Shown: positions 392-4,977 of the stretch, piece after piece
Layout of the letters: each line of letters begins with the position of its first letter
How positions within the stretch are numbered: position 1 is the first letter of the stretch
Source: an uncultured Planctomycetales bacterium
GTDB taxonomy: Bacteria; Omnitrophota; Gorgyraeia; Gygaellales; Profunditerraquicolaceae
NCBI GenBank assembly: GCA_964645795.1
Contig: CAZYCL010000009.1
Coordinates: forward strand, 505 to 64,504
Reading direction: 5' to 3'
Length of the DNA stretch: 64,000 nucleotides
Notes under the pieces: generated by a model
What the model was told of the DNA's origin: nothing
What the model saw: only the letters and a program-made list of their open reading frames with translations
Database searches by the model: none
Program-made: the position numbers and the translations under genes

Positions 392-1310
392 ATTAAAAGG
401 GCTTACAAATCTCCAGATAAAAACATTGTGGGTTCGGTGTCCTGCCTAGAAGTAGATAAGGGGTAGGAAGAGCATCTGTTTTGTCCCGCCAAGCTATTAA
501 TAGAGGGCGGGATCCCGTATTCCGAAAAAGCGTTCTTTTTTGAAAATTTATAAAGCATAGTTGGCGCAATTTCTTTACTTCAAACACTTCAGGTGTCGGT
601 AAATATGCGCTCAACCTAAATCCGTTCCACGCTTTGAACGCGTGGTTCTATGCTCTTTGACAACTTAATAAGTAACTAACGACAAGGTCGATTTGTCCCT
701 TTTTTGTGTTTTACACAAAAAAGGGACGGTTCTCCTGCTCCGTGAAAACGGGGGGAGAACCGATCTTGATGGTAGAAAACTACGATATAACCGAGAGAAT
801 CACGATTTTTGGTCAAGCTACAAAGAGTCTATGATGGATGACTCGGTTAGGTGAGGCGATGAAGGACGGGGTAAGCACCGATATGTCCCGGGTAGCCGCA
901 AACTGGCGTTAATCCGGGAAATTCCGAATGAGGAAACTCACCGCAGTTTATACTGCGGTATCTCCTGGCTGAAATTCAAAATAGGGCAGGAGAAGCGAAC
1001 CAGGCGAACTGAAACATCTAAGTAACCTGAGGAAAAGAAATCACAGAGATTCCCTTAGTAGCGGCGAGCGAAGAGGGAAGAGCCTAAACCTTTTTTCCGC
1101 AAGGAAAAAAGGGGTTGCGGGACCTCGATGTGGGATTGCAAATGGATAGCGGAAGTATCTGGAAGGATACGCAAGATAGAGTGAAAGCCTCGTACGCGAA
1201 ATCTAAAAGCACCCTAGAGGTATCCCAAGTATCACGGGACACGGGAAATCCTGTGAGAATCTGGGCCGACCACGGTCTAAGGCTAAAGACTACACCTAAA
1301 CCGATAGTGC

Positions 1311-1344
<34 letters not shown>

Positions 1345-2751
1345 GGTGAGGGGAGTGAAATAGAACCTAAAATCATAGACTTACAAGCGGTGGGAGGGCT
1401 ATGCGCATCCGCAAGGGTGCGAATGCCTGACCGCGTACCTTTTGCATAATGGTCCGACGAGTTACTGTGCGATGCAAGCTTAAGGCGTCTAATCCACGCC
1501 GCAAGCGCAGCGAAAGCGAGTCCTAACTGGGCGATTTAGTATCGTATAGTAGACCCGAAGCTGAGTGATCTACCCATGGCCAGCGCGAAGTTCCCCGAAA
1601 GGGGAATGGAGGTGCGAACCCTTCAGAGTTGAAAATCTGTGGGATGAGCTGTGGGTTGGAGCGAAAGACTAAACAAACTCAGAAATTGCTGGTTCTCCCC
1701 GAAACAATTCTAGGGTTCGCCTTGAGTAATAGAAGGTAGGGGTAGAGTGCTGAATGGGCCACGGGAGCATACTAGCTTGCTGGGCCCAACCAAACTCCGA
1801 ATACTACCTTCCGTATCTCAGGAGTAAGACGACGGGGGCTAAGCTCCGTTGTCCAAAGGGATTCAGCCCAGACCGCCAGCTAAGGTCCCTAAGAATAGGC
1901 TAAGTGGTAAAGGATGTGATTTCGCTTTAACAACCAGGATGTTGGCTCAGAGGCAGCCATCATTTAAAGAGTGCGTAACAGCTCACTGGTCGAGCGATTT
2001 CGCGCCTAAGATGACCGGGGCTCAAGCCTATTACCGAAGCTGCGGGTTCAGCCACCTCGTGTGGTTGAGCGGTAGGGGAGCATACTTTAATGGGTGAAGG
2101 TGTACCGAGAGGAGCACTGGACGTTAAAGTAGTGATTATGTCGGAATAAGTAGCGAAAATGTCTGTGAGAAACAGACACACCGAAAGTCCAAGGTTTCCT
2201 GGGGAAGGTTAATCCGCCCAGGGTTAGTCGATCCTAAGCTGAGGCCGTTTGGCGTAAGCGATGGATAATCTGTTAATATTCAGATACTAGTTAAGTTGCG
2301 TTAACACTTTCTGCATGACGCAGGAGGGACAGGATTGCGCAGTGTTGGATGTCTGCGTTCTTTATGCCGCAAGGCATGGAGGGGACCTCAAGGTTTCCGC
2401 GAGGGAAGTACCCGGATCCCTATTGCCAAGAAAATTGCAGTGGAGGAGTGGCTTAACTACTCGTACCGTAATCCGACACAGGTAGACCACCAGAATATGG
2501 TAAGGTGCTCGAGATAACTCTCTTTAAGGAACTCGGCAAAATAGCCCCGTACGTTCGCAATAAGGGGTGCCAGAAGGGTTGCAAGGCCCTTCCGGCCACA
2601 GTAAAGTGGCTTGGGTGACTGTTTAGCAAAAACACATCACTCTGCAAACTCGAAAGAGGAAGTATAGGGTGTGATACCTGCCCGGTGCTGGAAGGTTAAG
2701 GCAAGGGGTCAATAAGTCGCAAGATTTATGAAGCTCTGAACCGAAGCCCCA

Positions 2752-2786
<35 letters not shown>

Positions 2787-3463
2787 TAACCTAAAAAGCT
2801 AGCCTGCTCTGATTAAATTCAGAGAATAATAACCAACTGTATGCGGGGATCTCCTCAAAAAATGTCGATACTAGCTTGGCGCATTAAGCCGGAGCAGTAA
2901 AAATGCGGCATTCACGGGGATAATCCGCAGGGAAGTCAAAAGGAGCATTTATGACCCCTCAGAGACCAGACGTTGGAAATTCCTGCCGAAGTTCAAGGTT
3001 ATCTCCTGAATGGATTGTAGGGTTTGTCGACGCAGAAGGATGCTTCCATGTTGGCATAAGCCAGCATAGCGATCTTCGTTCTGGATATCAAGTCCTTCCA
3101 GAATTAACCGTAGTCCAACATGAGCGCGATCTGGATTTGTTGCATGAATTGCGTTCAACGATGAATTGCGGCGTAGTAAGAAGAAATCACGGAGACAGGT
3201 TCTGCTGGAGAGTAAGAAATTTAAAAAATCTCTCAGAAGCGATTATCCCCTTCTTCGATAAATATCCGCTAAAGTCAAAGAAATCTTTAGAATACATGAA
3301 ATTCAGGAAAGTGGTTCAAATGATGCAAAAAGGAGAACATCTTACAAGAGAAGGCTTCTCACGGATAGTTAAAATTGCGTCTGAAATGAACCGCAGCAAA
3401 CCTCGAACAGTACAGGAGTTTAAGAGAGAGTCCACTCCGGAATGAAAATTCTGGATAACAGTG
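2787..3463 (+). mobile_element. group I intron in 23S rRNA at the site equivalent to E. coli U1931/A1932, carrying a homing endonuclease ORF
   Basis: Conserved exon ..CCTAAGGT | AGCGAAATTCCTTG is split by 677 nt. The 5' exon ends in U and the insert ends in G (omega-G). The ORF with a LAGLIDADG motif lies inside the insert. Confidence 0.8.
2951..3445 (+). CDS. LAGLIDADG homing endonuclease (single-motif, I-CreI-like size, 164 aa), intron-encoded
   Basis: The motif IVGFVDAEGCFHVGI matches the LAGLIDADG consensus. A Shine-Dalgarno sequence AAGGAG sits 8 nt upstream of the ATG. The ORF lies entirely inside the 23S insertion. Confidence 0.8.
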   Translation: MTPQRPDVGNSCRSSRLSPEWIVGFVDAEGCFHVGISQHSDLRSGYQVLPELTVVQHERDLDLLHELRSTMNCGVVRRNHGDRFCWRVRNLKNLSEAIIPFFDKYPLKSKKSLEYMKFRKVVQMMQKGEHLTREGFSRIVKIASEMNRSKPRTVQEFKRESTPE

Positions 3464-4100
3464 AGCGAAATTCCTTGTGGGGTAAGTTCCCACGCGCACG
3501 AATGGTTTAACAACCTAAGCGCTGTCTCAAAGAGAGACTCGGCGAAATTGTAGTGGCGGTGAAGATGCCGTCTACCCGCATCAAGACGAAAAGACCCCAG
3601 AACCTTTACTGTAGCCTGCTATTGGGATTTGGATCACTATGTGTAGCATAGGTGGGAGACTTTGAAGTCCAGGCGCTAGCTTGGGCAGAGTCGCAATGTG
3701 AAATACCACCCTTATTGCTCTAAGTTTCTAACTTGCAGCCGTTATCCGGCGCGAGGACAGTGACAGGCGGGCAGTTTGACTGGGGCGGTTCCCTTCTAAA
3801 AGATAACGAAGGGGCCCCAAGGTTGGCTCAGGGCGGTCGGCAATCGCCCGTGGAGCGCAAGCGCATAAGCCAGCTTAACTGCGAGTCGGACACGACGAGC
3901 AGATACGAAAGTAGGGGCTAGTGATCCGGTGGTTTAAAGTGGAATTGCCATCGCTCAACGGATAAAAGGTACTCTGGGGATAACAGGCTTATCGGGCTCG
4001 AGAGTTCACATCGACAGCCCGGTTTGGCACCTCGATGTCGGCTCATCCTATCCTGGGGCTGTATAAGGTCCCAAGGGTCCGGCTGTTCGCCGGTTAAAAG

Positions 4101-4136
<36 letters not shown>

Positions 4137-4421
4137 AAATAGACCATGCTGTCTTTAAATCTGGCTAATTGCTGGGAAATCTGAGTATCCCGTATTACTA
4201 CTTGATGATCAGTCTCTATATGAGATAATGATCGTCGGGAGTGAAAATATATGGGTGCAGACAATCAGCAGGAAAGACTGGGAAACTTTACCAGAATCTT
4301 CAGAGACTGTACGCCAGAAACCTGCCGAGAGGCAGTTTAAGATACAGTCCGAACTGCATAGCGATATGCAGAGTCTGGCAGAAATGTCTAGACCCTCTAG
4401 AAATAGAGAGTAACAATATTG
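4137..4421 (+). mobile_element. ORF-less group I intron in 23S rRNA (peptidyl transferase region, about E. coli U2604/U2605)
   Basis: Conserved exon GTCGTGAGACAGT | TCGGTCTCTATC is split by 285 nt. The 5' exon ends in U and the insert ends in G. A candidate internal guide GCTGTCT sits 12 nt into the insert and can pair with exon AGACAGU (terminal U.G). The exon distance between the two insertion sites is 673 nt, the same as E. coli 1931 to 2604. Confidence 0.65.
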
Positions 4422-4977
4422 TCGGTCTCTATCTGATGTGGGCGTTAGGATACTTGAAGGGGAGTTCTTTTCAGTACGAGAGGACCTTAAGAAACGAACC
4501 TCTGGTGTTCCGGTTGTCCTGCCAAGGGCAAAGGCCGGGTAGCTAAGTTCGGAAGGGATAAGCGCTGAAAGCATCTAAGTGCCAAACCCGCCCCAAGATT
4601 AGGTATCCCTGTGCCGCAAGGCACTGAAGGCTGGTCGAAGACTACGACCTCGATAGGCGCAATGTGTAAGATCCGTAAGGATTTGAGCTAATGCGTACTA
4701 ATCAGCCAACCGGCTTGACCTTAAATCATTTTCGGTTAAGCGTAGTTTATACCTCACGAGTTACTTATGAAGTTGTTAAATTCTCCTCCTGGCGCAAGCC
4801 AGGAGGAGATTGATTTTCTTGCAGACGCTGCCGAGAATAATATTACGGCGGCAACCTTAGTAAGCGCAGTTAGCGTAAAACAAAGGGTCTGCTAAATAAT
4901 TTAAGGCTCCCGACTTAAACCTGGATAAAACCAAGGTATCGTCGGGAACCAAAATTTTTCGTTTCACGAAAAATTTT

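Follow-up and report, generated by a model that had tools for sequence, protein, structure and literature searches.

The question raised by this locus is what kind of element splits the 23S rRNA gene of an Omnitrophota bacterium in its peptidyl-transferase centre. The window, meaning the whole 64,000-nt stretch that was analysed, carries this gene near its left end, and the parts of the insert described here lie on the forward (+) strand. With a probability that we place at about 0.88, window positions 4137–4421 are a group I intron inserted after U2604, a gene-less member of a family that we refer to as L2604, most likely at the stage at which the endonuclease has been lost. Genuine though it is, the insert is ordinary: its mobile intron family, described from CPR bacteria in 2024, is common among uncultured bacteria, and this copy is one without the endonuclease.

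The host gene is complete. In an Rfam search of the 64-kb window, it extends over 811–4722 and covers positions 1–2925 of the LSU model with 2549 bits, with two tRNAs before it and a 5S after it. Anticodons read from the sequence identify the tRNAs of the upstream spacer (233–388) as tRNA-Ile (GAU) and tRNA-Ala (UGC). Between the 23S and the 5S, a strong GC-rich hairpin, CUCCUCCUGGCGCAAGCCAGGAGGAG (4786–4812), is probably a processing stem. In the LSU model alignment, 300 nt are skipped against 15 model positions directly after GGGUUCAGA. The upstream exon ends in AACGUCGUGAGACAGU at 4136 and the downstream exon starts with UCGGUCUCUAUC at 4422; the 285-nt insert between them begins with A, ends with G and splits GAGACAGU/UCGGUC (a slash marks an insertion point or splice junction throughout). 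These limits can be fixed because the E. coli sequence GACAGUUCGG is restored by this split only. Numbered along an rrl copy of E. coli, the U of GAGACAGU corresponds to position 2604, which makes the junction U2604/U2605; the landmarks GAUAAC (2447) and AGUACGAGAGGACC (2654) agree with the standard E. coli numbering. The site belongs to the peptidyl-transferase centre and follows A2602 by two residues. Upstream, the first intron of the gene ends at 3463 (AACAGUG/AGCGAAAUUCC), and the exon between the two introns (3464–4136) counts 673 nt, which is 2604 minus 1931. The original prediction, made from the sequence alone, had given the length, the terminal A and G and the exon distance of 673 nt correctly to the base; its placement of the split near E. 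coli 2604/2605 is exact. The mature 23S rRNA should be annotated as 811–2786 + 3464–4136 + 4422–4722, with two genuine group I introns in the gene.

Such junctions also bear on the least probable explanation of all, an assembly error (a chimera or mis-join) by which a foreign intron ended up in the contig. The window is probably metagenome-derived, and a protein identical to the endonuclease of the first intron was otherwise found only on four Logan contigs of about 1 kb, as might be expected of an artefact. Against this stand junctions that are exact to the base on both sides, guides that fit their own exons, including the lineage-specific GGUCU, and homologous introns at the same site in the relatives L056, L003, L008 and L028.

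If the insert is real, its sequence should be informative as to its class. The original prediction had proposed a search with the Rfam group I intron model and a manual P1–P9 folding as checks. The search against RF00028 returned 64.7 bits, where the gathering score is 50, with E = 4e-14 for the 64-kb window, in an alignment that takes in P3, P4, P5, P6, P8, P9 and the J8/7-P7 consensus. The predicted minimum free energy of the insert is -93 kcal/mol (z = -5.3), and none of 200 shuffled sequences was equally stable. The folding gave a structure with P1, P3 to P9.2 and P10, which includes the group I core. We evaluated this hand-drawn structure on a MAFFT alignment of the window copy with 26 short (ORF-less) L2604 copies, 27 sequences in all, which has a mean column identity of 53% and long invariant blocks. 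Its partners are paired in 91.1% of alignment cells, as against 33–37% when the 3' partners are slid by 1–3 columns. Double-sided (compensatory) changes occur in 39 of 75 pairs, and the observed values were reached in 0 of 500 column shuffles. Compensatory pairs are present in each of P3, P5, P5a, P6, P6a, P7, P8, P9 and P9.1. From the alignment only, RNAalifold, which cannot draw the P7 pseudoknot, recovered P1, P3, P4, P5, P5a, P5b, P6, P6a, P8, P9, P9.1 and P9.2 with compensation in 42 of 76 pairs, and it added a P5b base (UACU/AGUG) and a covarying A1-U11 extension of P1.

The individual helices can be placed in the window as follows. The 5' strand of P3, UCUGGC (4160–4165), pairs with GCCAGA (4313–4318; intron 24–29/177–182) in 100% of cells, and three of its six pairs change on both sides (UA to CG). 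P4 (UGCUGG, 4170–4175, with UCAGCA, 4265–4270; intron 34–39/129–134) is likewise 100% paired, nearly invariant and a fit to the Rfam P4 consensus. The P5 region (4180–4261) comprises P5 (4180–4183/4258–4261), P5a (4189–4195/4249–4255) and a P5b base (4196–4199/4240–4243) that carries a long P5b hairpin; compensatory changes are found in three of the four pairs of P5 and in seven of seven of P5a. P6 (4271–4273/4297–4299) and the P6a hairpin (4278–4281/4291–4294) occupy 4271–4299 (intron 135–163), and both covary. The closing pair of P6 is G.U in the window copy but G-C in most relatives. The 5' strand of P7 (4303–4311), a G followed by a bulged A and GACUGUA, pairs with UACAGUCC (4343–4350; intron 167–175/207–214); it is paired in 97% of cells, with compensatory changes from UA to CG and from AU to GC. 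P8 (4322–4335) is a CUGCC/GGCAG hairpin with a GAGA loop and covarying base pairs. The last three hairpins (4354–4408) are P9 (4354–4371, GCGA loop, 100% paired, four covarying pairs), P9.1 (4373–4393, GAAA loop, 98% paired, five covarying pairs) and P9.2 (4395–4408, GAAA loop), which is variable but compensated. The window intron has no P2, with just UUAAA joining P1 to P3, and its P3'-P8 linker is AA only; lacking P2, and lacking P7.1/P7.2 between P3' and P8, it does not show the features of subgroup IA3, the L2593 type. A further RNAalifold helix, between CCGA just 3' of P7 and the exon UCGG, was treated as unsupported because both of its sides are invariant and it competes with P7.

A covarying core of this kind weighs on the reading of the insert as a non-spliced intervening sequence or expansion, which would either be retained in the mature 23S rRNA or be cut out by RNase III with the ends left unligated, so that the 23S is fragmented. 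Intervening sequences are common in bacterial 23S genes, and many of the short insertions in CPR genes are of this type (PMC11270868), but their known sites, 23IS2 and 23IS4, are elsewhere in the gene (PMC11270868). In the present insert, the group I score exceeds the gathering threshold, the catalytic core covaries, a U.G pair sits at the splice site and the last base is G. A break or a 285-nt retention two residues from A2602 would also be hard to tolerate, and we regard this reading as highly improbable. The group I reading of the original prediction is upheld by the Rfam score, by the covariation among homologues and by intron-less alleles in related contigs, which are described below.

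The elements expected at the splice sites of a group I intron are in place. The end of the 5' exon, AGACAGU (4130–4136), in which U2604 is the splice-site U, forms a P1 of 7 bp with the internal guide GCUGUCU (4148–4154; intron 12–18), including the terminal wobble U2604.G12; this guide, 12 nt into the insert, had been picked out in the original prediction together with the terminal U.G. P1 is paired in 99.5% of the cells of the 27 sequences and conserved in 27 of 27 aligned homologues, and its independent recovery by RNAalifold speaks for it. Its A1-U11 extension pair covaries (AU 17, GC 5, UA 2, GU 2). For the 3' splice site, a P10 guide, AGACC (4141–4145; intron 5–9), can form 5 bp with GGUCU of the 3' exon (4424–4428; exon +3 to +7). 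P10 scores only 49% paired on the MAFFT alignment because the length of the P1 loop varies, and a per-sequence search was used instead. By this search, a P10 of at least 4 bp is possible in 77 of the 90 complete copies among the matches listed, as against 46% of shuffled loops. The P10 guides also track the exon variants: GGUCU occurs with AGACC or AGACU, GGUCC with GGAC, GGCCU with AGGCC (L072) and GGCCC with GGGCU (L092).

The guanosine-binding site consists of G167-C214, the bulged A168 and G169-C213, and both GC pairs are invariant in the 27-sequence alignment. G169-C213 of P7 is the presumed guanosine-binding pair, in a bulge layout that we take to match the C262/A263/G264 arrangement of Tetrahymena. 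The terminal G4421 (omegaG) is invariant across the same alignment. It closes the 3' tail GUAACAAUAUUG (4410–4421), whose first five bases, GUAAC (4410–4414, 8–12 nt upstream of the terminal G), are invariant in the 27 aligned members; only L044 deviates (GCAAC) among the complete copies listed. No covarying pairing partner for this pentamer was found in the 27-sequence alignment. A tertiary pairing of GUAAC with the invariant UAC of P5 was considered and rejected because RNAalifold pairs UACU/AGUG as the P5b base and the GCAAC variant of L044 is uncompensated. A similar sequence, UAACA, precedes the 3' end of the first intron, and the pentamer may conceivably help to position the 3' splice site.

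Group I introns are removed by a two-step transesterification, and the parts identified above suggest how this would proceed at position 2604. The guide GCUGUCU would pair with the exon AGACAGU as P1, in which the U2604.G12 wobble would define the 5' splice site, and an external guanosine docked at G169-C213 of P7 would attack that site. AGACC (intron 5–9) would then pair with the exon GGUCU as P10, and the terminal G285 would enter the same pocket. Attack of the 3'-OH of U2604 after G285 would restore GACAGU-UCGGUC and release the intron. From its anatomy and conservation, we infer that the window intron is self-splicing.

It could instead be a splicing-impaired relic, which would need a protein in trans (a maturase, for example the LAGLIDADG protein of the first intron, or a host factor) or would sit in a non-functional rRNA copy. 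The window copy is without a protein of its own, and it might fold poorly because some LAGLIDADG proteins act as maturases. In PMC3984707, maturase activity of a LAGLIDADG protein is cited for a bacterial 23S intron, from Thermotoga. The endonuclease of the first intron is 37% identical to one endonuclease of the L2604 family, that of L008, and the G.U pair in P6 and the missing P2 are also what one might expect of an impaired ribozyme. We nevertheless consider a relic unlikely: the core helices, the guanosine-binding pair, omegaG, P1 and P10 are all intact and consistent with the covariation of the family, the rest of the 23S gene fits the bacterial model end to end with tRNA-Ile, tRNA-Ala and the 5S in place, and at least 38 gene-less copies across several phyla are contrary to a strict dependence on protein.

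The family to which these copies belong was delimited by one pass over species-representative genomes, with a pattern that joins the exon to a P1-forming guide (AACGTCGTGAGACAGT N3-30 GCTGTC). At least 117 stretches, 117 of the 120 matches listed, have an insertion exactly at 2604/2605 with a P1-forming guide; the remaining three of the matches listed are two rRNAs of archaea and one further locus. A 5' end with GCUGUCUAUAAAUCUGGCUAUAUGCUGGAAA and a 3' end in GUAACAnnAnUG are common to nearly all of the insertions listed. Counted from the record titles of the 117 positive loci among the matches listed, Actinomycetota account for at least 58 loci, CPR for at least 17, Omnitrophota for at least 11, Pseudomonadota for at least nine (eight of them labelled Gammaproteobacteria), Armatimonadota for at least five, Planctomycetota, Acidobacteriota and Chloroflexota for at least three each, Dormibacterota for at least two and Myxococcota for at least one, with at least five other or unclassified. 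The whole window intron (4137–4421, 285 nt, A1 to omegaG285; 64.7 bits) is homologous to at least 89 complete copies at the same site. Including it, the 90 complete copies among the matches listed fall into two size classes, 38 of 253–457 nt and 52 of 696–901 nt. In a run of RF00028 on eight loci, the short copies of relatives scored 74.5 (L056), 64.0 (L003) and 54.3 bits (L096), and the long copies came out below the threshold, presumably because an insert of about 470 nt splits the model; for these the alignment was relied on instead. A second flavour of insertion was seen at 2604 in L021, L026, L062, L099 and L109, with a hairpin within the P1 loop and GAGCUGUCC(G)UUUU after the guide. Its hosts are mostly Gammaproteobacteria (L109 is from CPR and L099 unclassified), its 3' tail still ends in (G/A)UAACAnnnUUG in the three loci with a recovered 3' junction (L021, L026 and L109), and it may be a distinct sub-family.

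The difference between the two size classes is a gene. Among the matches listed, the 52 long copies hold 45 LAGLIDADG ORFs that look intact and seven that are broken. The encoded protein is a single-motif LAGLIDADG protein; the representative from L008 matches Pfam PF00961 (E = 6e-25) and is nearest, among PDB entries, to I-OnuI/I-LtrI-type domains and single-motif rRNA-intron enzymes. Alignment of long and short copies of the Omnitrophota type places a coding body of about 470 nt in the P6a loop, with the gene overlapping the core at both ends. In L008 the ORF starts as AUG GGU GCA GAC AAU CAG CAG GAA AG across P5a', P5', J5/4, P4' and P6 and ends in P7/P3'/P8 (ESSETIRQ), and the endonucleases of L008, L028 and L108 all begin M(G/S)ADNQQERP at a homologous AUG.

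The window copy belongs to the gene-less sub-class (38 of the 90 complete copies among the matches listed) and is still within the ribozyme family. The conserved core helices P5a', P5', P4' and P6 keep an AUG and nine codons, including those for GADNQQER, as the start of a 29-aa ORF (4251–4340); a clean 18-nt P6a hairpin follows, and the frame is lost after P6a. The longest ORF wholly within the insert (4228–4413) is 61 aa. Neither this ORF nor the 29-aa stub has a match in Pfam, so that the window copy has no LAGLIDADG_1 endonuclease and was rightly called ORF-less. The original prediction had also described it as minimal, and here we differ: the retained AUG and an identity of about 91% to a gene-bearing copy suggest that it most likely derives from a copy with a homing-endonuclease gene, since lost, rather than from an ancestor that was never invaded. 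Over nt 11–140, it is 91.6% identical to the gene-bearing L008 and 90.8% to L003, and over the same stretch, which includes the P5b hairpin, it is 88–92% identical to the Omnitrophota-type L008, L003, L047 and L028. The direction of change stays an inference because the retained codons double as conserved ribozyme core. In the 371-nt L2604 intron of an Omnitrophica WOR_2 genome (L003, 4321–4691), P6a contains about 100 nt with a patchy alignment to the endonuclease coding sequence of L008 and L028, so that the gene looks to be midway through its decay. Homing endonuclease genes pass through a cycle of gain, decay and loss, and as judged from the matches listed in the one-pass scan, all stages of the homing cycle are represented in the L2604 family, which is found in many non-CPR lineages. 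The understanding of how such introns work is left unchanged.

The enzyme of the long copies would presumably cut intron-less rDNA at the near-palindromic GAGACAGT/TCGGTCTC and so drive homing. Of the 16 positions of this presumed target, 12 are symmetric around the point of insertion, which fits a homodimeric enzyme. The family amounts to a large natural collection of single-motif LAGLIDADG enzymes directed at a single conserved site of 16 bp. The window copy is no longer self-mobile because its endonuclease gene is reduced to a start codon and nine codons; it would be inherited vertically, or might be mobilised in trans.

How fixed is the intron in the clade of its host? The window 23S exons are 94.2% identical to those of an Omnitrophota MAG (L056) and 87.8% to those of the Omnitrophica WOR_2 genome (L003), both of which have short L2604 introns that pass the Rfam threshold; the assignment of the host is based on this 23S identity to labelled MAGs. 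A scan for the intact junction together with the clade's downstream exon found 27 metagenome contigs with an uninterrupted 2604 junction, 85–96% identical to the window exons over long aligned stretches. The L2604 intron is optional within the clade, since these related contigs do without it. Eighteen of the 27 are empty at both 2593 and 2604, and nine (L127, L132, L135, L137, L142, L144, L148, L151 and L152) carry an insertion of 699–715 nt at U2593/C2594 (CAUG/CGUGAG). The L2593 site is 11 nt upstream of L2604, and the 11 nt between them, which would form a micro-exon if both were occupied, are CGTGAGACAGT. The allele types seen in the rRNA clade of the window are empty, L2593 only and L2604 only; each of the two scan patterns required the other junction to be intact, so that double occupancy was outside their reach. 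The I-CreI-type L2593 target, which we take to span about 2587–2608, overlaps the presumed L2604 target. A tentative and rather doubtful idea is that the L2604 family is mobile across phyla, that its target GAGACAGT/TCGGTCTC and the right half of the L2593 target overlap, and that the two introns are mutually exclusive. If so, occupancy of either site would destroy the target of the other enzyme, and a gene-less L2604 copy would persist partly by keeping L2593-type enzymes from cutting the sole rRNA operon.

Two introns in one bacterial 23S gene had been called unusual in the original prediction. This is fair for cultured bacteria only. Multi-intron rRNA genes had been recorded before for cyanobacteria (Haugen 2007) and for CPR. 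A two-intron 23S gene is normal among carriers of L2604 because many of the positive loci also carry L1931 and further insertions. Insertions of about 380–770 nt near E. coli 2500 and elsewhere between 1931 and 2604 were noted in contigs L130, L134, L137, L139, L141 and L145, with the same kind in genome loci L015, L020, L022, L024, L036, L074, L104 and L120; multi-intron 23S genes are common in these lineages. Surveys based on rRNA are affected, as long or interrupted 23S genes are easily overlooked. The companion intron of the window (2787–3463, 677 nt; RF00028 53.2 bits) is inserted after U1931 (AAGGU/UAACC at its 5' end, AACAGUG/AGCGAAA at its 3' end) and has an ORF for a 164-aa LAGLIDADG_1 protein (2951–3445). 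Since this ORF begins within the P7 strand (AUGACCCCUCAGAGACC), with its body further downstream in the P8 region, the placement of the gene differs from that in the L2604 family (P6a).

Among known systems, the closest are two intron types at other positions of the gene and one precedent at the same site. The L2593 introns (Cr.LSU of Chlamydomonas with I-CreI, and cyanobacterial and archaeal IA3 introns) lie on the same conserved strand, 11 nt upstream, and code for a single-motif LAGLIDADG enzyme that, as a homodimer, cleaves rDNA at a near-palindromic site. They differ in being IA3 introns with P2 and P7.1/P7.2, whereas the L2604 intron has no P2 and only AA between P3' and P8. The L1931 introns (of Thermotoga, Simkania and cyanobacteria, and the first intron of the window) form the second type. 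Like L2604, they have no P2, similar core sequences (AAUCnGCAGGrAAG, further on CCUCAGAGAC) and a UAACA 3' tail, and their ORFs extend into the core helices, a point made by Haugen 2007 for L1917 and L1931; the single-motif LAGLIDADG proteins are 37% identical (first intron of the window and L008). They differ in site and target, and the ORF of the window's first intron is not in P6a.

As for the site itself, Haugen 2007 gave L1917, L1931, L1951 and L2593 as bacterial 23S sites, with up to three introns per gene, and Nawrocki 2018 reported archaeal introns at 1931 (IB4), 2500 and 2593 (IA3) and none at 2604. Our literature search did not find the name "L2604" used with an intron, the site appearing only as "position 2604", and it found no description of an L2604 intron family outside CPR. 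The original prediction did not recognise the site, but Tsurumaki et al. 2024 (PMC11270868) list position 2604 as a frequent LAGLIDADG_1/group I site in CPR 23S genes, and the scan adds at least 117 stretches. By the order of their listing, position 2604 is 23IS13, at which introns were stated to be previously unreported in bacteria. The same study counted 222 ORF-less group I introns in CPR 23S genes and up to 16 insertions per gene; its tested enzyme, I-ShaI, came from site 23IS7 and not from 2604, and its account of 2604 is without secondary structure, the position of the gene within the intron or a splicing or cleavage test. The CPR insertions at 2604 share with the window copy the position, the assignment to group I by the Rfam model and a single-domain LAGLIDADG_1 as the associated protein (PMC11270868), and insertions of the same kind occur in at least 17 CPR genomes of the present scan. 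The difference is in the host, which is a member of Omnitrophota (PVC group) rather than of CPR. While 2604 rRNA introns had been reported only for CPR bacteria, the window copy is a new member, from Omnitrophota, of this recently described kind.
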